From positions 1 through 56,164 of IMG/VR virus record IMGVR_UViG_3300005918_000026: a stretch of 56,164 nt of DNA; one strand, 5' to 3'. Position numbers and translations under genes: made by a program. Positions 3,059 to 50,873 of this stretch are shown piece by piece (position 1 is the first letter of the stretch; each line of letters begins with the position of its first letter). The DNA comes from a virus (taxonomy: Duplodnaviria; Caudoviricetes). Below the pieces are notes generated by a model. The model was not told where the DNA came from, made no database searches, and worked only from the letters and a program-made list of their open reading frames with translations.

Positions 3059-3121
3059 TATAAATAGCTTAAAAATTTATACTGAAAAAGATTTAATAAT
3101 TTTTTTTCTCCCCTATTTATA
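3059..3121. promoter_or_regulatory. Divergent pair of putative late promoter motifs (TATTTATA on each coding strand)
   Basis: TATAAATA on + at 3059-3066 (TATTTATA for the minus-strand gene) and TATTTATA at 3114-3121 upstream of the tail tube gene; the same motif precedes about 20 genes in the window. Confidence 0.65.
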
Positions 3122-9853: not shown

Positions 9854-9937
9854 GTAATTGTTTTTTTATAAATAGTTTAAAATTTATTGGTCATGTAATC
9901 ATTTTTTAAACTATTTATAAAAGAATAAAAGTATTTT

Positions 9938-13086: not shown

Positions 13087-15504
13087 TTAAAAGTCTTCGA
13101 AGTTTGCGCCAGCTGGAAGCACTTGGAAAGTAAGGTCAATGTATTCTACAGTTCTTGTAGGTTTCAATTGAATCTTTCCTACCAATGTGTTTCTATCAAT
13201 TGTATCATTGTTATTGTTTGAATCGTCCATTACAACCTTAAAGGAATATAATCCTCTTTGATTTTGGATTTGTAACAATATTGGTTCAACTTTAGCTAAG
13301 AATTGGTCACGAATCGTTTGGTCATTTTGCTCGAACAATAATGTTAATGAAGCTGCTGCAACAAGCCTTCTAACTTGAAGAAGAAGTCTTCTAACATTAA
13401 TTCTATCAAGAGCTGATTGACGTTGTTGTAAAGTTTTTTGTCCTAAAATTACGATTCCTTGTTGTACAAAAGAAGCAATTGGATTAACTCTACCTCTATA
13501 AAGAGTATCTCTACTGTTTTTATTTAATTTAACATCAGTTTTCTTAATACTTGAACCAGCGATACCTCTATTAAAACCTGCAGGTGCGTACCATGGGTTC
13601 GCTACACTATCTGTCAAAGCGATTGCTTTAATTGCAAGCAATGTAGCAGGCTGATAAGTATATTTACCTGTATTGTTGTCCACAATTTGAATCCATGGCC
13701 AGAATGTTGTTGCATAATTAGAATCCACTCCTGTTGACTCTAATAAATTTACAACTTCTTCTGGTGTTCCCTTGGTTTGTCCAACAGTTATCCTTGGAGC
13801 ATCAATTACATAAAGTGAATCAGCTCTTTCTTCGATTACATCAAGAGCATACTTGATAATATCATAGTTATGGCTGAAATCGATACCTGGAGTTGCGAAT
13901 AAGTTAATATCAACATCTTCTGGATTTTCAAACGTGTCAACCGCTGATTTAAATGCGTATACATTTGCTTGATAAGCATCTGTGAATAATGCGTAAGGGT
14001 CAGATGACATTTGATATTTGTCCCATCCATCAAATCCGCCGTAAGGAGATACGGTAAATTTCAATTTATTTTTATCAATTAAAGTCCCAGCCACATTTGT
14101 ATATGCAGTAAGAGAATTTAAACTTCCACTTTCAAACTGAGTAGAGTTTGCAGTATTCTCAAGGTGAAAACCTTTAATTGTTGTTTTTCCTGTTGCTACA
14201 CCACCTTCATACTCAAACATATCTGCTTCTAAACTCTTAACTTGATTAGAAGTTGAAGCCGCTGCGTTTGTGTTTGTATATCCTTTTTCAGAAAGTCCAA
14301 GATATGTTTTGAAAATTGAATCTCCTGATAAGTATCCAGTTTTATAATAAAATACTGGAGGTGTTGCCTCACTAACCGTTGTGCCTCCTCTAAGCTCATA
14401 TCCTCTAAATCCAGAAGGAACAGCATTAGAAGGAATTGCATCAGCCAACTCTAAAGCTATAAAGCTAGATTTGATTGGGAATTCTTCATCATAAGTTCCA
14501 ATTACCTTAGCAATATAATTCTCAGCTGTGTCATCAAGAGTCATATTTGAAAATCTCTCAAGAGCCGTTGCGCCAACCTCAGCATCTGTATCAGAGAATC
14601 TTCTAACAATAACATCAAAAGTATAATTAACAATATCAATATTTGATATCGAAATTTTCAATTCTGTGTTTGCCGCGTCACCATCAGAAATAGTTCTGAA
14701 CTTAAACAAATTTCTTACTTGTCCACCAATAACTCTGGATACAATCCAAGGAGTTGTTGCATGTGTATATTCATTCTCAAAATCTGTATAGTTAACATCT
14801 GTTTTATAAACTGGCGTTGCTTGTACATTTACAATATCACCTCTTGATGTTGCTTCTCTAATAAAATGAGGATAGATTTTTTCCACATAGAAATTAGGAA
14901 CCTCATCTAAAATTTCTGTTGTTTTTCCAAGAATCTTAACAATGTAATTATCTTTTGTTTCATCTAAGGAAACTGTATAACTATTTCCAGATTCAGCCCC
15001 CACGAATGGACCTGTACTTCCACTTATTGTGAAGTCTCCCAGCGGAGATGTTGGAGCGGTCAATATTTCGATATCACTTTCCAAAGTATAATAGAAAGCT
15101 CCACTGATTTGATTTCTCTTACTTCTCAGTATTGCAAGTGTTGCACCTGAATATTGTCCATTTGCCTCGGCCGTATAATCAGCTACAAGTAACCATCCAT
15201 TTGAATTTTCAAAACCTGCGTCAGAACCGTCTTCTTTCCCTGTTCCAAGTACTCTTGTCACTGTTAAATCATTAGCCTGCGCCAAAAACGAACTCGCTAC
15301 ATAAGGTAAAGGCAAGTCTGGAGACGTACCACCGAATCTTAACAGAAATTCATCTGATGTTGCAATTTTTATTGGTTCAAAAGCTGGTCCTTTTTCTGTA
15401 AGTCCAGCTAATCCCAATCTTGTTATTCCAATCCTAGAAGCGAAAACGCTAAAATCTTGTTCTTTAGTATAAACGCCTGGGGATACAAAGATAGTCGTTG
15501 CCAT
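13087..15504 (-). CDS. gp18: Tail sheath protein (T4 gp18-like)
   Basis: FVSPGVYTKEQD, KGPAFEP, PWYAPAGFNRG, RDTLY..RVNPI, GQKTLQ, SALDRINVRRLL. Confidence 0.97.
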   Translation of the reverse strand: MATTIFVSPGVYTKEQDFSVFASRIGITRLGLAGLTEKGPAFEPIKIATSDEFLLRFGGTSPDLPLPYVASSFLAQANDLTVTRVLGTGKEDGSDAGFENSNGWLLVADYTAEANGQYSGATLAILRSKRNQISGAFYYTLESDIEILTAPTSPLGDFTISGSTGPFVGAESGNSYTVSLDETKDNYIVKILGKTTEILDEVPNFYVEKIYPHFIREATSRGDIVNVQATPVYKTDVNYTDFENEYTHATTPWIVSRVIGGQVRNLFKFRTISDGDAANTELKISISNIDIVNYTFDVIVRRFSDTDAEVGATALERFSNMTLDDTAENYIAKVIGTYDEEFPIKSSFIALELADAIPSNAVPSGFRGYELRGGTTVSEATPPVFYYKTGYLSGDSIFKTYLGLSEKGYTNTNAAASTSNQVKSLEADMFEYEGGVATGKTTIKGFHLENTANSTQFESGSLNSLTAYTNVAGTLIDKNKLKFTVSPYGGFDGWDKYQMSSDPYALFTDAYQANVYAFKSAVDTFENPEDVDINLFATPGIDFSHNYDIIKYALDVIEERADSLYVIDAPRITVGQTKGTPEEVVNLLESTGVDSNYATTFWPWIQIVDNNTGKYTYQPATLLAIKAIALTDSVANPWYAPAGFNRGIAGSSIKKTDVKLNKNSRDTLYRGRVNPIASFVQQGIVILGQKTLQQRQSALDRINVRRLLLQVRRLVAAASLTLLFEQNDQTIRDQFLAKVEPILLQIQNQRGLYSFKVVMDDSNNNNDTIDRNTLVGKIQLKPTRTVEYIDLTFQVLPAGANFEDF

Positions 15505-15569
15505 ATTTTATCAATTTTTTGTATATTCTATAACTTTTTTATAAATAGATAAAAAAAGTGTTAATTAAT

Positions 15570-16280
15570 TTATTTCTCTGAAATTTTAATAGAAATTTTA
15601 GTAATTGTATTTACACGCTCAAACTTTGTAGGGTCAATCAACTTTCCATGTACTGTTATTGGAAAAATAATCTGATACACACGTTCACTCGCAATATCCT
15701 CAATACTATTTTCTTCCGAAGGTTCTTCAATGATAGAAGTTACATCATATCCATTTATTTTAAGATACCCCTGACCATCTGAATAAGCTTGATACATCAT
15801 CATCTCATAAAAATCATCTACATCTTCGGTATAATGTGCAACAAATCTTATCTCATAAAAAATATCAACATATACTGGTTGTGGTATTTTATAAATATCA
15901 AACCCTTTAAGAGTTCCATCAAAAACAGGAACCTTTACAAATTTAAAAGGCTTGTGTTTTGGAACAGTATATCTAAAAGGAGCAGTTCCTCTTTTCACTG
16001 CAGTTCTATACATTGAAATATATGGACGACTCACCTCTTCCCCATTCTCATTCCTCATATCTTTCCAGTTCATCTTCCTCTCAGCCCACAATTCATGCAT
16101 TGTATGAATAACAGGAACTTTCTTCATTTTCCCGTTTTCATCCATCACACTAAAATTAAAATCTTTTAAAAATCCCATGAGCCCAAGCCCAAAATCTTCT
16201 AACTCTAATTTTTGTGGTAAATAAGCGCTGTTTTCAAACTGTCTATCAAGGTTTGCATCAATGTTATCTAATACCGACAT
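15570..16280 (-). CDS. Tail terminator / sheath stabiliser (T4 gp15-like)
   Basis: KVPVI...E.W, RPYISM.R, IPQPVYVDIFYEI motifs; position between neck and sheath genes. Confidence 0.65.
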   Translation of the reverse strand: MSVLDNIDANLDRQFENSAYLPQKLELEDFGLGLMGFLKDFNFSVMDENGKMKKVPVIHTMHELWAERKMNWKDMRNENGEEVSRPYISMYRTAVKRGTAPFRYTVPKHKPFKFVKVPVFDGTLKGFDIYKIPQPVYVDIFYEIRFVAHYTEDVDDFYEMMMYQAYSDGQGYLKINGYDVTSIIEEPSEENSIEDIASERVYQIIFPITVHGKLIDPTKFERVNTITKISIKISEK

Positions 16281-16311
16281 ACTCTTTTTAATATAAATAG
16301 TTTAAAAATTA

Positions 16312-16343
16312 CTTGATTTCTTGAATAATATTTCCTAATATTG
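16312..16343 (+). promoter_or_regulatory. Bacteroidota-type promoter (CTTG-N20-TAATATTG) pointing into the intergenic structured region
   Basis: Same architecture as the element upstream of the A1-like gene (49259-49290): TTGATT...TAnTATTGCAnTG. Confidence 0.55.
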
Positions 16344-16346
16344 CAG

Positions 16347-16630
16347 TGACTGTTTTATCCTGTGACTCTTTTATTTCAGGGGCGTTGGTTTTCGAACACA
16401 GGAGTTTTGTGCACTGGTATGCTGATACACAGAGACTTATAAAACAAACAACCTATCTCCAAATTGTCGAAAGACAAGGAAGGGGGTAGGGGGTTGGTTT
16501 TTCCAGATTTTGTCCCTAATTTGCTGAATGAGATATAGACCTAACTTTTAAATTAGACATAGAAGTATACATTAGATAAAAGTTAAAGATTAGATAGAAG
16601 TATCCTATCATATAGAATTTTTTTTCAGCA
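16347..16630 (+). ncRNA. Candidate structured non-coding RNA (about 280 nt), family not recognised
   Basis: Nested helices with G-U pairs on +: 16351-58/16439-46, 16359-64/16397-402, 16403-11/16428-37, 16452-60/16482-90, 16522-28/16624-30, 16542-50/16577-85; UUCG and GAAA tetraloops; no ORF. Confidence 0.6.
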
Positions 16631-16637
16631 GCGCGTT

Positions 16638-17204
16638 TTATCTTGCTTTGAAAATATCTTCATCAATTTCGACAGCTTCTATTGAAATAAAGAATTTTCT
16701 ATCACCACCCCACGAATGTTGATTGCTAAACTGGGAATGTCCATCATCAATGATTTTATAAAATTGACCTTTAAATTCAAGAAAATCGCCCATACGCATT
16801 GATGAGATTATTTCATTATCACTTTTGCGCCATATCAATTTAAGTTCTTCTAAGTGTTCAATATAAATGTGAGCGGTGAAATTACCCATTCCTTTCTTTA
16901 TAGGTCCACCCTTAGATTGAAAACTAGGTTTATCTACTGTTACATTTATTCTTCCAAAGACTTCTATTTCTGGCATCCAAACTTTTTGTTTAGCTTCGCC
17001 ATAAAGTTTGTGAGTTTTTGTTTTCTTAAGGTCAATACGATATAGGAGGAAACTTTCTAAGAGAATTTTCTCTGTAATTTCCCTGCCAGCTTGGTGAAAG
17101 AATTCAGCTTCTTTTTCACCAAAAAACAACTTAATACCTTTTTTGTTGTTTTCGTGCTCTTTTACCTTTTCAGGTTGCTTTCCTATTTCGTCTATATTTG
17201 ACAT
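16638..17204 (-). CDS. Neck / head-closure protein (T4 gp14-like)
   Basis: LYRID...H.LYGEA, GDFLEF...YKI motifs; gene order. Confidence 0.65.
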   Translation of the reverse strand: MSNIDEIGKQPEKVKEHENNKKGIKLFFGEKEAEFFHQAGREITEKILLESFLLYRIDLKKTKTHKLYGEAKQKVWMPEIEVFGRINVTVDKPSFQSKGGPIKKGMGNFTAHIYIEHLEELKLIWRKSDNEIISSMRMGDFLEFKGQFYKIIDDGHSQFSNQHSWGGDRKFFISIEAVEIDEDIFKAR

Positions 17205-17208
17205 ATTA

Positions 17209-18126
17209 TTAATTTGTAAATCTTACATCACTAGGAATCAAAGAGTTTCTATGAACCCTAAAAATGAAAGATAGTGTTTTTTCATTGTTCGATAAATAAT
17301 CAATTGATACTTCGTTATTAAATTTCATAGCAGATACAACATCTATTAAACCGTTGGTTAATTTGAATATTTTATTATCAACATAAATCCATTCGTCGAA
17401 TTTCATAAGACCATCTTTGAATATTTTTTTAGCTTTATATGCATTTTCAAACCTTGGGGCTTCTGTTAAAAGATTTATTTGTTCTTTAATCGTAGCTCTT
17501 ATTTTATTTTCATGTGATTCGTCTAACATTTTATGCCTTTTATTTATAGCAGTTTCTAATAATTTTTCTAACCATATCCAGGCCTCTTTTTTACCTTGGT
17601 CAGTAATTTGCACATCTTTATAGTCAACTCCATCTTCACTGTCTTGCCATGCTCGATATCCCTTTTCTGTTTTTTTGAGTTGGTTGCCAGCTTCTACAGG
17701 AGGAATTAATACATATTTACGATGCATATTTATAAATCCTTTTCTTTCTAAATCCCAAACATATTTTTTTTCAGAGTAATAATCACTACTTATTAGACTA
17801 TAAGCACGAGTTATTTCAACTTTAAAATACATTACAGGACATTCCCAATCGCCACCAGCCATATACATCTCTGCTTTAACTTCATATTTAACTGGTTGGT
17901 CTTTTCGAAGATTCTTCTTTATGTAGAAAGCTTTCTTTTCATTGGTTGAATCATTGTTTTCTAGGTCAAAATTTATTTTTTGAAAATCTTGAGCTTCTTT
18001 TATAACATCTATCCATGCACCATCCACAAGACTGTGATAATTGAAAATTTCTTTTTTCTTATCTTGTTTTCTGGAGGAAATTGATTCTCGTACCAGTTTT
18101 CTTATATGTTTTTCATTTTCTACCAC
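17209..18126 (-). CDS. Hypothetical protein (possible internal head protein)
   Basis: 305 aa, GTG overlapping the neck gene stop; IRKLVRESI and IRATIKEQI motifs. Confidence 0.65.
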   Translation of the reverse strand: MVENEKHIRKLVRESISSRKQDKKKEIFNYHSLVDGAWIDVIKEAQDFQKINFDLENNDSTNEKKAFYIKKNLRKDQPVKYEVKAEMYMAGGDWECPVMYFKVEITRAYSLISSDYYSEKKYVWDLERKGFINMHRKYVLIPPVEAGNQLKKTEKGYRAWQDSEDGVDYKDVQITDQGKKEAWIWLEKLLETAINKRHKMLDESHENKIRATIKEQINLLTEAPRFENAYKAKKIFKDGLMKFDEWIYVDNKIFKLTNGLIDVVSAMKFNNEVSIDYLSNNEKTLSFIFRVHRNSLIPSDVRFTN

Positions 18127-19316
18127 AAATATAATCCCATTGGTCCATAACTTAAGCTTGTATTTACAGCATCTTGAATAGCCGCATTTCTTTCCATGAT
18201 TTTATCATAATTAAGCTCTGTTAATTGTTCTTTAAGTTCGTCTCTGAGCATTTTTTGGTCTTCTCTACTAGTAGCGATTAAATCATCTTTATTTAGAGTT
18301 AATACAGCATCTGGAATTGGCAATTCTCCATTAAACTTACCTCTTATACCAATACCTAAAACTTCTTTTGCTAACGCTTGGGCGTATTTTTTAACCCATG
18401 TTTGAGCTACAGAATTTAATTGATTATATGCAATATAATTAAGTTGAGCATCTCCAGGAGAAGAAACTAATCCATTTCCTTGATATCCTGCGTCAATTTG
18501 TTCTTGTGTATGGCCAGTAAATCCAGGATTAGCTGTATTTCCAGAATATTCTGGATTTCCATAATTCCCGTATCTATCGTAATATCTGTAAAATAATCGC
18601 CCAGGAGTACCTGCACCACCACCAATTCCAGGGGCGGCATTACCAGCTTCTGACCCTGGCCTTGGAATAGGAAATAAAGTAATAACTTTTTTACCCTCGG
18701 CTCCAGGTCTGATTAGATATGAATATTCTGAACCTCTTACTCTGTTTCTCATTTCAGCGGCTTGAGCTGTCATAATAACATCGTATACAGGCATAACATG
18801 ATAAAGAGTGTGTCCCGCAAAAGATGCTCCAAATTCTGAGAATGCGATATTAGTATTTGCAAATGGGTCAAGTCCATATAAATTAATAAAACTAGGAGTA
18901 AACCATAATACCTCATTTATTTCTCTTTCAGTAGGTATTTCATAATGTTGTGTTCCAGCAGTAAGGATAATTGAATCAGTTTTTATTTCTCTGGTACCTT
19001 CTGCTCCTAATCCCGTTTGCTCTGCAATAGATTTCCCAAAAGATTTTTCAAAATATAAACTATTAGAAACATATTTGAGAGTAAAATCTACCTCAGATGG
19101 TAAACCTAACATTTCTCCTAACCTATTTGTCATTACCCAGTTATTTATATATGTAGAATACTCTTCTATTGCTTCACAAATACATTCTTCAATGTTTTCA
19201 TCAAGCAATTCTACACCCATCACAGGTGCACCAAGTTTTCTTCGTATACGACTGTATATTTTGACTATTTCGGTGCTGGTCATTCCTGACAGACAACCAT
19301 CTGTGCAAAAACTCAT
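18120..19316 (-). CDS. gp13: Neck / head-tail adaptor protein (T4 gp13-like)
   Basis: RRKLGAPVMGVEL, WVKKYAQALAKEVLG..RGKF..LPIP..VLTLN. Confidence 0.85.
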   Translation of the reverse strand: MSFCTDGCLSGMTSTEIVKIYSRIRRKLGAPVMGVELLDENIEECICEAIEEYSTYINNWVMTNRLGEMLGLPSEVDFTLKYVSNSLYFEKSFGKSIAEQTGLGAEGTREIKTDSIILTAGTQHYEIPTEREINEVLWFTPSFINLYGLDPFANTNIAFSEFGASFAGHTLYHVMPVYDVIMTAQAAEMRNRVRGSEYSYLIRPGAEGKKVITLFPIPRPGSEAGNAAPGIGGGAGTPGRLFYRYYDRYGNYGNPEYSGNTANPGFTGHTQEQIDAGYQGNGLVSSPGDAQLNYIAYNQLNSVAQTWVKKYAQALAKEVLGIGIRGKFNGELPIPDAVLTLNKDDLIATSREDQKMLRDELKEQLTELNYDKIMERNAAIQDAVNTSLSYGPMGLYLW

Positions 19317-19331
19317 AATATTCTATTTTTA

Positions 19332-19598
19332 TTATTTATAATAAGGAGGTTGTTGTGTCTGTTGATGATGAGACTTAAACCCCACGAAAGAACCACTTGA
19401 TACGGTACATTTACCAATAAGAACATCTATAGTTTGACCAGACGTTGCCGTCCAGGTGAAGTTGCCACCACCCTGCGGTTTTACTATAATGGCACCATTA
19501 GTTAAACATAAAATTTGATGAACTACTGATGTTTCCGTGTTTGCAGTATAACCCGCATCTAATGATACACTTTCAAAATTTTGATTGTAAAAAGCCAT
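19332..19598 (-). CDS. Small hypothetical virion protein
   Basis: 88-aa beta-rich ORF directly after MCP, with TATTTATA at 19614-19621. Confidence 0.65.
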   Translation of the reverse strand: MAFYNQNFESVSLDAGYTANTETSVVHQILCLTNGAIIVKPQGGGNFTWTATSGQTIDVLIGKCTVSSGSFVGFKSHHQQTQQPPYYK

Positions 19599-19716: not shown

Positions 19717-21375
19717 CTAGTAAGTATTAATATTGTCAATAATGATAACAGCATAAAATCTGTTATTAACCATTTTCTTCGCATAACGAGTCATGATTCC
19801 TTTACGAGGTGTGAAGTCATTAGGGTCAGTGATTGTTTGTGTTAATTGAAGAGGAATATACGGCGCGTAGATGTAACCTGCTTCTAAGAATGTGTTACCT
19901 TTGTGACCTAAAATTACAAGCTGTGCTGGTAAATAAGGGTCTTTGTAAACTACATATCTTGAACCTAAGTTTCCAATTTTTTCAACACCAAGGTTATATT
20001 TTTCGCTTTCTGGAGCTGCGCTACCGTCAACGTGGAAATATTCAAGGTCATCAAAAATTGCACCTGCTTCTGCTGAACAGATTACCCAGTTAGCTCCACC
20101 TCTCAATGTTGCTTTATGAATTTGAGCTGAAAGTTCATTAATACGAGTGATTAATGTTTGATTCCAGTCCTTCTGTGTTCCGAAGAAGTTTGCGTTATTT
20201 GCAAGCCCTTTATAATCCCAACGTGCGCGGAACGGAGCTTGGTTTGCAAGGTCAATGATGATTTCACGGTCAATCTCAGCCGCAACGTGCTCTGACAGTA
20301 ATGCTGTCAATTCCGCTTCTGCGTCAATTGAATGGTATGCTTCAAGGTCTTGCGCCAATTCAGGAGTCCAGTGAGCTCTAAGCTTACGAGTAATCGTAGT
20401 TACAGTTACACTAGAGAATCTGATTGTAATTTCTGCCATCTCTGACTTACCTTCTAGGTCATTATAAATTTCATAGATAGGTTTGATTTGAATTTCACAT
20501 GCGGTACCGAAGTTGCCAGCGTTGTCATTCAATTTAGTGTAGTCAAAATCACTACCTTGTACAGATGCAGGACGTGCGTCAAAAACAACTTTAGCGATGT
20601 TATTTGCAAACATGTCTGATGTCCAAGTTTGAATTTGTGAGAAGAATGGCCAGTTTTGTTCAGTTGCATCAATAATTTTGATGTTTTGTGAACCTGCACT
20701 GTAATATAAAGATGTTACAGCAGAGAAACGTACAGTTGCACTAGATTGCTGTCTGCTAACATCAAAAGATGTTCCCAAAGTAGCGTCCGTAGCGTACAAA
20801 CCGTTGGATAAACTGTCAGCTGAGAAAGTAAGTAAGGTTGCATCTAGTACAGTTTCACCAGTACCAAAAGAAAGGTCGAAACCTTTGTTTCCATAAAATC
20901 TTTCATAAGCTGTTGTGTCAGCAAATTGAGGACCTGCATTGCCATTGGCAGTGTTTGAAGGTGCTACTTTCTGACTGTTTTCACCATCAAACTGTGTTTC
21001 ATGGGAAATTGGGCTTTGTTGTGTGTTGTCACTACCGTCAAATGATACTCTTGCGTCCATATAGAACAAAAGTCCAGAAGGTAATGCTAAAGGTTGAACA
21101 GATACCAATTCGTTTGCTAGTAAACGTGAAAATACACGTCTAACGATTGGAAATGCTACAGTGTCAAAACGACCTGCAGAGCTATCAAGTGTCACCTCAT
21201 TTAACATGTGGTGAGCTTGGTTTTCAAGCAACTGAGCTGTGTTTGATTTGCGCATTCCGTCCAAATCTTCAAGTAATCCTGAATTTTCCCAGTTATTAAT
21301 AATTGATTGACGTTGTTCGGCCAAATCTTTAAATACTGTCAGACCTACTTTTCCTGATTTTAAAAGTTCGCTCAT
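19717..21375 (-). CDS. gp23: Major capsid protein (T4 gp23-like)
   Basis: VSVQP..LPSGLLFY, TRKLRA.WTPELAQDL.AYHSIDAEAELT, YAPYIPL, FTPRKGIMTRYA. Confidence 0.97.
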   Translation of the reverse strand: MSELLKSGKVGLTVFKDLAEQRQSIINNWENSGLLEDLDGMRKSNTAQLLENQAHHMLNEVTLDSSAGRFDTVAFPIVRRVFSRLLANELVSVQPLALPSGLLFYMDARVSFDGSDNTQQSPISHETQFDGENSQKVAPSNTANGNAGPQFADTTAYERFYGNKGFDLSFGTGETVLDATLLTFSADSLSNGLYATDATLGTSFDVSRQQSSATVRFSAVTSLYYSAGSQNIKIIDATEQNWPFFSQIQTWTSDMFANNIAKVVFDARPASVQGSDFDYTKLNDNAGNFGTACEIQIKPIYEIYNDLEGKSEMAEITIRFSSVTVTTITRKLRAHWTPELAQDLEAYHSIDAEAELTALLSEHVAAEIDREIIIDLANQAPFRARWDYKGLANNANFFGTQKDWNQTLITRINELSAQIHKATLRGGANWVICSAEAGAIFDDLEYFHVDGSAAPESEKYNLGVEKIGNLGSRYVVYKDPYLPAQLVILGHKGNTFLEAGYIYAPYIPLQLTQTITDPNDFTPRKGIMTRYAKKMVNNRFYAVIIIDNINTY

Positions 21376-33339: not shown

Positions 33340-33371
33340 TTTGAAAATTTTTGTTTTTTTTCTTATTTTTG
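33340..33371 (+). promoter_or_regulatory. Bacteroidota consensus promoter TTTG-N20-TATTTTTG driving the glycan operon
   Basis: TTTG at 33340-33343 and TAnnTTTG at 33364-33371, 20-nt spacer. Confidence 0.6.
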
Positions 33372-49258: not shown

Positions 49259-49290
49259 TTTGATTATATCAAAATAATTTCTTATTATTG
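49259..49290 (+). promoter_or_regulatory. Bacteroidota-type promoter TTTG-N20-TATTATTG
   Basis: One mismatch to TAnnTTTG, correct spacing, 23 nt before the ATG at 49314. Confidence 0.5.
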
Positions 49291-49313: not shown

Positions 49314-50873
49314 ATGAGATTCAAAGATTTAACATCTAAACAAATCTCCTATGCTAAAGAAGTCTACTATAATAAAGACTTATCTTGGGACGAGCGCATG
49401 GGGATTCTACAAAAACTTTTTGAAAAATGTGAGCGAACCACAAGAAAGTGGCTTATTACGCTTGGGATTGTCACCAATCAAAAGAAGGACTCTGAGGATT
49501 CGGAGCAATATGAGGAGGCGAAAAAAAAGACTCATGATAAAACTAAAAAAAGGTTTTTGATAACGTGGGCTCAAAACAACACGCCTGTACATAAACCGTT
49601 TTTTGATAATATGAAGGCGTATGCTGAATTTATTGATGCCGACATTCATGTTATCGCTGGTCGATATAAAAATCCAACATCTGTATTTTCTGATTACGCT
49701 CATGATTACTGGGTTGATGATGTACTTCCGTTTTTGGATGCAAATCGACATGATATTCATAAGTATGTGTCGGTAATGTCAGATGTGAAGATTCAACCAA
49801 CAGCCGTTAATCCACTTAGCGGTTTAGAGGGAATGAGTGGAATTAATTCTTGCGTATTTGGTTCTCCCCGTGTCCACCTCAAGGTGATTGCGGCTATGGA
49901 GGGTCACAAGCCGAAGATAATGATGACAACTGGGTCTGTTACTAAGAAGAATTATACAGATTCTAAAGTAGGCAAAAAAGGTGAATTTCATCATACACTT
50001 GGATTTGTAATTGTAGAAATAAGTAGTGAAGACAAATTCTTTGCTCGTCAGGTAACTGCAAAGCAAAACGGGAGTTTCTGTGATTTAATATTCGAAGTTA
50101 AAGACGGAGATGTGGAAGAAATTGACAGAGTAGCTGCAGCTGTACTTGGAGATATTCATCTACATAACATAGACAAAGATGTTATTGATACAACTGTTGA
50201 TTTTTTAGATAGAATAAAACCTAAACATACTATACTTCATGATTTATTTGATGGGTGGTCAATTAGTCACTGGCATACTAAAAATCCAATAAAACTTTAT
50301 CAAAAACAATTAGATGGTTCCGATTCTTTAAAGAAGGAAATAAGTCAGATGGTTGATTGGCTAGAAGACATGAGAAGGTATAATCTTGTTATAGTTCGAA
50401 GTAATCATGATGATTTTGTTGATAGGTGGGTAGTTAATAGTGACTGGAAGAAAAATATTATAAATTCGGTTGAATATATGGAATATGCTAAAGTTCTGTT
50501 ACAGGGCGAGGCTCCTAATGGAATTATCCCATATGTAATAAATAAGAATTTTAATGATATTAAAACTCTTAGTCGAACAGATAGTTACATTGTTAAAGGT
50601 TGGGAACTTGGAGCTCATGGAGACTATGGTCAAAATGGAAGTCGAGGCAGTATAGGACAATTTAGAAGGTTAAATACAAAGGTGGTTACAGCCCATTCGC
50701 ACACTCCCGCTAGACAAGATGGTGCATTAACCGTTGGAACTACAACTAAGCTGAAAATGGATTATAATGAAGGAGGTCCTAGCACTTGGTTACATTCTCA
50801 TGTAATCATTCATGAGAGCGGAAAAGCTCAACATATAATTATTATTGGGGGGGAATTTACAACCTTGATATAA
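49314..50873 (+). CDS. Metallophosphoesterase with N-terminal HTH-like region (T5 A1-like)
   Basis: AQNNTPVH, PTAVNPLSG, GDIH, HDLFDG, SNHD, HGD.GQNGSRG, HSHTP, GPSTW. Confidence 0.75.
   Translation: MRFKDLTSKQISYAKEVYYNKDLSWDERMGILQKLFEKCERTTRKWLITLGIVTNQKKDSEDSEQYEEAKKKTHDKTKKRFLITWAQNNTPVHKPFFDNMKAYAEFIDADIHVIAGRYKNPTSVFSDYAHDYWVDDVLPFLDANRHDIHKYVSVMSDVKIQPTAVNPLSGLEGMSGINSCVFGSPRVHLKVIAAMEGHKPKIMMTTGSVTKKNYTDSKVGKKGEFHHTLGFVIVEISSEDKFFARQVTAKQNGSFCDLIFEVKDGDVEEIDRVAAAVLGDIHLHNIDKDVIDTTVDFLDRIKPKHTILHDLFDGWSISHWHTKNPIKLYQKQLDGSDSLKKEISQMVDWLEDMRRYNLVIVRSNHDDFVDRWVVNSDWKKNIINSVEYMEYAKVLLQGEAPNGIIPYVINKNFNDIKTLSRTDSYIVKGWELGAHGDYGQNGSRGSIGQFRRLNTKVVTAHSHTPARQDGALTVGTTTKLKMDYNEGGPSTWLHSHVIIHESGKAQHIIIIGGEFTTLI

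Follow-up and report, generated by a model that had tools for sequence, protein, structure and literature searches.

A probable family of structured RNAs encoded antisense among the neck and tail genes of a group of large phages

What occupies the longest stretch without substantial coding capacity in a fragment of a phage genome? The question is raised by the 56,164-bp IMG/VR record IMGVR_UViG_3300005918_000026, a tailed phage (Caudoviricetes) that was analyzed over its entire length and is hereafter termed the window. Inside a run of minus-strand late genes, between those for a 236-aa and a 188-aa protein, lies a gap of 357 bp (16281-16637), which, once the artefact of an open-ended open reading frame (ORF) at 1-2988 is set aside, is the longest stretch in the window without an ORF of at least 60 aa, as a preliminary description of the sequence had stated. 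That description had further proposed that the gap encodes a novel non-coding RNA of about 280 nt, transcribed from the plus strand by a host-type promoter of its own and antisense to the neck and tail genes. The proposal stands up to comparison with related phages: covariation, the asymmetry between the strands and a conserved promoter together argue that this is very probably a real structured RNA gene on the plus strand, belonging to a phage-specific family.

Covariation, strand and promoter of the RNA gene

Homologues of the locus were gathered from IMG/VR and the JGI metagenomes with alignments of both flanking proteins, which in the related contigs are 46-74% identical to those of the window; in about 25 of these contigs the gap between the flanking genes measures 310-440 nt. 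Compensatory change is visible even in a structure-blind MAFFT alignment of these gaps, where relatives have CCUACA/UGUAGG or CUUAUAG/CUAUAAG in place of the CCUGUG/CACAGG helix of the window. A covariance model (R1; 231 positions and 32 base pairs), built from eight sequences of a single clade, returned in cmsearch exactly one strong match per contig, located in the gap and antisense to the genes, in 24 other distinct contigs in addition to the window (E-values from 4e-58 to 2e-4); in the window itself it matches 16345-16527 with 37.9 bits (E 5e-7 to 8e-7). The model did not detect two loci with a second type of RNA (L037 and L055) or a minimal member of the family (L085), to which we return below.

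In the resulting 25-sequence alignment, which was fitted to the R1 structure and so favours that structure, 88.2% of the 773 cells pair, as against 74.6% under column shuffles and 43-55% when the partners are slid by one to three columns; these slid controls share the same alignment, and the first compensatory changes came from the structure-blind one. Changes on both sides affect 21 of the 32 pairs and 119 cells, and none of 500 shuffles reaches the observed values; an alignment of 21 sequences gives the same picture. Thus, the covariation among homologues of the gap that the preliminary description had put forward as a check is indeed found. The strand can be read from the same pairs: among the 651 cells of the 21-sequence alignment there are 435 Watson-Crick and 139 G-U combinations, as opposed to only 9 A-C, and the opposite strand would pair in just 68.2% of cells. 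Hence, the RNA is read on the plus strand, in agreement with the earlier remark that the G-U pairs favour it. As for coding potential, a 47-aa ORF at 16346-16489 is not conserved, its matches to relatives being short and in different frames, with a shift of frame within the first 75 columns in all 24 of 24 relatives; the conserved core of the RNA overlaps neither flanking coding region.

Immediately upstream of the core, at 16313-16343 on the plus strand, lies what at the level of motifs is a sigma-A-type promoter of the Bacteroidota, comprising a -33 TTG (16313-16315), a 20-nt spacer and the -7 box TAATATTG (16336-16343). According to the account of Flavobacteria promoters in PMC9723704, the sigma-A -7 box reads TAnnTTTG and lies at -12 to -5 in Flavobacterium psychrophilum; the box in the window departs from this consensus by one mismatch and, because the -7 box lies at -12 to -5, the RNA is predicted to start at about 16348. 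A TTG stands 19-21 nt upstream of the -7 box in 22 of 23 related gaps, including two that hold a different RNA, and the exact TAnnTTTG is present in 20 of the 23, with a spacer sequence that varies freely. From these motifs we infer a host-type and early transcription and, from the form of the promoter, a host in the phylum Bacteroidota. The likeness already noticed between the box at 16336 and one at 49283 also holds: TAATATTGCAGTG and TATTATTGCACTG, respectively, are the only two exact matches in the window to the pattern of the preliminary description, and the intergenic pattern of TTG, 20-nt spacing and box recurs only at 16313, 33341 and 49260. The two latter sites (33341-33371 and 49260-49290, both TTG-N20-TAnn(T/A)TTG), which precede a block of glycan-synthesis genes on the plus strand and the gene at 49314, respectively, are themselves likely to be host-type promoters.

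The RNA appears to be restricted to one group of phages. All 16 IMG/VR contigs that match a pattern made from its 5' motifs belong to this group; 15 of them had already been found via the flanking proteins, and the sixteenth, L092, has the same gene order. The first pattern drawn from the core matched 23 stretches in IMG/VR, of which only five loci from three contigs are real, the rest being chance matches in high-GC coding sequence. Two motif patterns found no match in 185,579 prokaryote species, each represented by a single genome, the patterns being exact and fitted to the two main clades, such that divergent copies would escape them. Among the longer records, three of five have the RNA, with one copy per record.

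Anatomy of the RNA and its two look-alike modules

The conserved core comprises about 180 nt (16348-16527, plus strand) and opens with a leader of about 10 nt before the first helix. This helix, P1 (16358-16403), pairs UCCUGUG at 16358-64 with CACAGGA at 16397-403 and is supported by covariation, with all 10 modelled pairs changing on both sides across the family, of which the window forms seven. It encloses a conserved loop, L1, of 32 nt, which holds AGGGGCGUUGG (16378-16388), the first half of a motif pair in which the G-run and the (C)GUUG are nearly invariant; the G-run could pair with the U-rich 5' part of the same loop, in a helix (helix 2) with U-G pairs in 21-25 of the 25 sequences. 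Next (16405-16425) come a conserved junction, UUUUGUGCACUGG at 16405-16417, of which UUUU(G/A)CACUG is kept in most of the 21 sequences, and the first copy of a hexamer, UGCUGA, at 16420-16425. In the window this hexamer lies in a hairpin of its own, P2, present in both the minimum-energy and the centroid folds and connected by an A-rich linker to P4.

The second covarying domain (16447-16495) is built from P4 (AAC at 16447-49 with GUU at 16493-95), P3 (CCUAUCUC at 16452-59 with GGGGUAGG at 16483-90) and the apex UUGUC-GAAA-GACAA (16464-16477). All eight pairs of P3 change on both sides, whereas in the four pairs adjoining it (helix 5) only the pyrimidine strand varies, with C or U opposite an invariant G; since the G does not change as the opposite strand drifts between C and U, the G-runs are conserved for some reason besides base pairing. 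In relatives, inserts ranging from tens of nucleotides to about 160 nt extend the tip of P3 and, judged by eye, most sequences could form an AU-rich extension of P3/P4. The core closes with the second motif pair (16489-16527), made of GGGGGUUGG at 16489-97, a U-rich stretch, CCCUAA at 16514-19 and the second copy of the hexamer, UGCUGA, at 16522-27. Beyond it stretches a clade-specific, AT-rich tail of 110 nt (16528-16637, plus strand), described here from its single-sequence fold, with a hairpin UAACUUUUA/UAAAAGUUA, two copies of AUUAGA(C)AUAGAAGUAU as a direct repeat of 15-17 nt, a run of eight U residues (16618-16625) and a UUCAGCA (16624-30) that could pair back with 16522-28. Tails cannot be aligned between clades. 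As for further contacts, a CCAG/CUGG pairing between loop and junction is seen by eye in one sub-clade only, and a scan of all column pairs for extra helices or pseudoknots was swamped by the complementarity of U-runs and G-runs.

Most of the individual helices of the preliminary description can be confirmed. The pairings CCTGTG/CACAGG (16359-64/16397-402) and CCTATCTCC/GGGGGTAGG (16452-60/16482-90), the hairpins UUGUC-GAAA-GACAA and GUAU-GCUG-AUAC, and UGCUGAA/UUCAGCA are all present in the sequence and in the minimum-energy folds. Two of its elements are unsupported: the supposed closing helix TGTTTTAT/ATAAAACA (in RNA, UGUUUUAU/AUAAAACA) sets a U-run against an A-run and is paired at 74.8%, as against 73.2% in shuffles, and the GTT-TTCG-AAC hairpin, which overlaps P1, has no counterpart in the relatives that were read.

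A peculiarity of the core is that its elements come in duplicate: a G-run with (C)GUU(G), a U-run and a hexamer are each found twice, once after the loop of P1 and once after P3. The hexamer, which follows the G-run by about 35-45 nt, reads UGGUAR in most of the phages and UGCUGA in both copies of the window, where it was read directly, the model misaligning copy 1. By alignment column, both copies carry an identical hexamer in 17 of 25 sequences. Between clades the copies vary in parallel, in that a divergent clade shows its own version at both sites or comes close to doing so: besides the UGCUGA of the window there are AGGUAA twice in L085 and UGCAAA with UGCAAG in L028, and L057 alone has GAGGGCGUU-AG in both copies; the hexamers of L053, UGCAUG and UGCAAU, fit less well. 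Two other structural interpretations of these repeated motifs were rejected: a G-quadruplex as the main fold, as it enters the minimum-energy fold of only 2 of the 25 sequences, and a mimic of CRISPR repeats or a mini-array, which calls for at least two near-identical repeats of 28-48 nt, as by eye the modules share only the G-run/CGUU, the U-run and the hexamer, with indels. No match to a CRISPR-DR family lies inside the RNA in a sensitive-mode Rfam search of 16200-16720.

Possible action of the RNA and competing explanations

A trans-acting RNA best fits the combination of a conserved fold, invariant single-stranded motifs, a promoter of its own and the lack of overlap with coding sequence, and the paired look-alike modules suggest two sites for one partner; we give this account of the function about even chances. 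Briefly, the following course of events can be envisaged. The host RNA polymerase with sigma-A would start at about 16348 on the plus strand, opposite in direction to the late genes, and would make a product consisting of the core of about 180 nt and a variable tail, amounting to some 270 nt should transcription stop at the U8 run. The core would then fold in three parts, namely P1 with its large conserved loop, a small variable hairpin, and the long P3/P4 with its insert-tolerant tip. In this form the RNA would present two copies of a bipartite site, each a G-run with (C)GUU(G) followed by the hexamer, and might engage one partner, either a protein or another nucleic acid, as a trans-acting scaffold or decoy.

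The locus also shows natural variation. L085 (1029-1404), recognised by eye, has a minimal RNA of about 165 nt with nearly no insert at the tip of P3. In two further loci, L037 (3568-3930) and L055 (2564-2920; both on the minus strand of the locus), the latter from a 291-kb record, the same slot and promoter serve a different, larger structured sequence with a shared GGGGGGGCGA and GGGG-A-UAGGGGG; the two copies show 11 compensatory pairs between them. A motif pattern of this second RNA type retrieved only its own two contigs, and it has no match in Rfam. As relatives may carry the RNA, the second RNA type, an ORF or a short gap, the slot behaves as an independent, swappable transcription unit within the late block.

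Several observations weigh against the picture of a conserved RNA with two sites for one partner. To begin with, the ordered fold claimed in the preliminary description, when put on the single sequence to the comparison with shuffles that it had itself suggested, is no better than chance: over 200 shuffles the z-score is -0.97 on the plus strand (16346-16630; 29 of 200 shuffles as good) and -1.06 on the minus strand, the core by itself reaching -1.14 and the tail -1.62, with 14-31 of 200 shuffles equalling the native sequence across the tests. A strict terminator of hairpin plus U-run is found in only 3 of 20 relatives. The loose promoter pattern is not enriched in the window (19 sites versus 14.5 +/- 4 in shuffles). 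Regarding the two modules, the last base of the hexamer differs between the copies in L003, L004, L079 and L092; the concordance of the hexamers has a permutation p of about 0.008 that rests on only seven distinct state pairs, and it could stem from common descent of an internal duplication. Finally, 12 loci have a gap of 955-1020 nt in place of an RNA-sized one. The only one of these that was read, L038 (3596-4369, minus strand of the locus), contains a 257-aa ORF running in the same direction as the RNA, whose own sub-threshold match to the NUMOD1 DNA-binding domain (E 9e-4; 19.9 bits versus a cutoff of 22.8) suggests a homing-endonuclease-like insert, perhaps a free-standing gene. In the distant relative L052 the gap measures only 104 nt. 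Since some relatives are without it, the RNA is dispensable for the phage group as a whole.

Position rather than product could be what matters, in that plus-strand transcription, or an overlap of the RNA with read-through late transcripts, might damp or time the neck and tail-terminator genes in cis. Late genes of the opposite sense do flank the RNA on either side, its place between them is strictly conserved, and about 12 nt separate its promoter from the divergently oriented late promoter of the 236-aa gene. Even so, we regard such a cis-acting antisense unit as unlikely, because interference requires neither a conserved fold nor invariant motifs, both of which are under selection here; further, the conserved core stays clear of both coding regions and the 236-aa gene has a promoter of its own.

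The layout of the locus, with a promoter followed by G5-7-N-G5-7 runs and, beyond these, by an AT-rich tail whose short direct repeats differ from clade to clade, also invites comparison with the pre-primers of replication origins, such as ColE1 RNA II, the R-loops at T4 oriF and oriG, and mitochondrial CSB II. By this analogy, an early transcript of the host polymerase would be locked by its G-runs on the C-rich template beside the AT-rich repeat tail, DNA synthesis would start there, and the covarying fold would time the formation of the hybrid, as in ColE1. Both the origin and the role that it would assign to the fold strike us as improbable: relatives fill the slot with a different RNA or an ORF or leave it empty, the RNA is present once per record, gene direction does not switch at the locus, the G-runs lie paired within a covarying hairpin, and a quadruplex enters few of the minimum-energy folds, as noted above.

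The G-runs, of which there are three per RNA, might alternatively pair with the 3' tail of the host 16S rRNA in the manner of a Shine-Dalgarno sequence, and L057 in fact reads AAGGAGGG and GAGGG at two of them. A ribosome-directed RNA is nevertheless very improbable, given that the main members other than L057 in the 21-sequence table keep a G where the Shine-Dalgarno sequence has an A, that the G-runs are paired inside the RNA, and that a complementarity of 5 nt is weak evidence. Least credible of all is the absence of any RNA gene, with the gap belonging to the minus-strand late mRNA as untranslated sequence, acting as a site at the DNA level or encoding the 47-aa protein (16346-16489), for the unremarkable single-sequence folds on both strands and the existence of that ORF are set against the poorer pairing of the opposite strand, the conservation of the promoter on the plus strand and the frame shifts in relatives.

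The RNA at this locus combines unusually clean comparative support with a fixed genomic address and a likely promoter, and its natural variants, from the minimal RNA of about 165 nt in L085 to the swaps for a second RNA type or an ORF, are ready-made controls. The presence of two motif pairs speaks for a specific partner, which it should be possible to isolate. If this partner were a host machine or a defence protein, the RNA could represent a new RNA-based means of phage takeover or self-protection; if the RNA were instead to prime replication, it would mark an origin in a group of phages that has none known as yet.

Genomic setting and relation to known RNAs

The window is the whole of its IMG/VR record, with a CheckV completeness of 18%, and thus represents part of a phage genome of some 300 kb; the 290,886-bp record of a relative is 91% complete by the same measure. 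The late block around the gap, encoded on the minus strand, includes the tail sheath (13087-15504), an adaptor-like protein (18120-19316) and the major capsid protein (19717-21375). The left neighbour of the gap (15570-16280, minus strand; 236 aa) is a tail terminator by fold: its AlphaFold model, with a predicted local distance difference test (pLDDT) score of 68, finds in Foldseek searches of the PDB the T4 portal-neck-tail complex (9mkb_AB, E 2.2e-10) and the gp15 crystals 4hud/4huh (E about 3e-8), in the face of zero PHROG or Pfam matches to its sequence. The right neighbour (16638-17204, minus strand; 188 aa), with a model of pLDDT 61, is probably a neck protein, Foldseek relating it weakly to the neck chains of phages, with 8hdr_A at E 3.5e-3 and T4 gp14 complexes at E about 2e-2. 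A PDB sequence search with the two flanking proteins gave nothing meaningful. On these models, the gp14 and gp15 labels given earlier to the flanks can be kept, and the gp14-gp15 gap seems a reasonable name for the locus. The claim that the gap is locally G/C-richer holds for G, with a GC skew of +0.20 to +0.25 as against -0.03 to -0.55 in the flanks; in overall GC content the difference amounts only to 0.35-0.38 versus about 0.30 around it.

The late genes have a promoter motif of their own. In front of the 236-aa gene it reads CTATTTAT in the sense of the gene (16293-16300, minus strand) and ATAAATAG on the plus strand; it is not the promoter of the RNA and, by its recurrence upstream of late genes, belongs to the tail-terminator gene. 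The same motif is found in the same orientation 12-37 nt upstream of six minus-strand late gene starts (seven if an 88-aa ORF ending at 19598 is counted) and of two plus-strand genes, as well as 72 nt upstream of the fibre gene, and it is usually followed by an A-run and is nearly invariant across the gaps of relatives. Sites of this type at 3060, 3113, 3962, 9868, 9911, 12990, 15541, 16293, 19615 and 32337 of the window precede most structural gene starts; at 9854-9937 the motif forms a divergent pair.

No match was found among 50,697 phage records, either by blastn with 15500-17300 or by tblastn with the 188-aa protein, and there is thus no cultured relative from which to draw annotation. 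DNA nearly identical to 15570-17204 is present in sequencing runs labelled salt lake metagenome, of which 10 hold at least half of the sampled words and four of these are flagged as possible sources; no RNA run is listed among the runs that hold the sequence.

The RNA could not be assigned to any known family, as had been anticipated. Rfam 15 at its gathering thresholds has no match in the whole window; in sensitive mode, 16200-16720 yields five matches with E-values of 3.8-9.1 and 11-19 bits, versus thresholds of 40-109, and in E-value mode there is none in the gaps of seven homologous loci. ARAGORN predicts no tRNA or tmRNA gene in the window. A likeness of GGGGCGUUG..UUUCGA to the 5' end of tmRNA was dismissed, having no matching 3' half. 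Likewise, 6S RNA, with its long end-closing stem and central bubble, was set aside: the supported helices form two local domains, the sole long-range helix proposed is without covariation, and no 6S or 6S-Flavo match emerged from the Rfam searches. Few structured RNAs of phages have a known role and, to our knowledge, none has been described for the jumbo phages of Bacteroidota.

Comparison with established systems places the RNA more precisely. ColE1 RNA II and the T4 origin R-loops are promoter-driven structured transcripts in which a G-rich part holds the template beside an AT-rich region; unlike in these, nothing indicates an origin here, and relatives replace the element or go without it. 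The pRNA of phi29 is a structured phage RNA of about 170 nt that has its own early promoter and works with virion-assembly proteins. It recalls the present RNA in that the gene for the latter lies among neck genes, the link to the capsid being one of gene position alone; the two have no similarity in sequence or model, and the phage considered here is contractile-tailed, with a different packaging apparatus. Closer in the kind of data is the catalogue of Fremin et al. 2023 (PMC10690425), in which mining of IMG/VR intergenic regions gave 8495 novel, unnamed csRNA candidates; these measure 29-151 nt, as opposed to the core of about 180 nt found here. A fragment of the RNA could sit in that catalogue; in the literature searched we found no description of it, and the family is, as far as can be told, uncatalogued and new to print. 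The nearest parallels are GOLLD (RF01998) and ROOL (RF03087), which are likewise non-coding, backed by covariation, carried by phages or prophages, transcribed as units of their own and of a function that is not known. Those two are reported in PMC12286853 to form RNA-only oligomers. By comparison with them, the RNA described here is without an Rfam match and far shorter, its core spanning about 165-295 nt, and it keeps to one gene neighbourhood in one group of phages.

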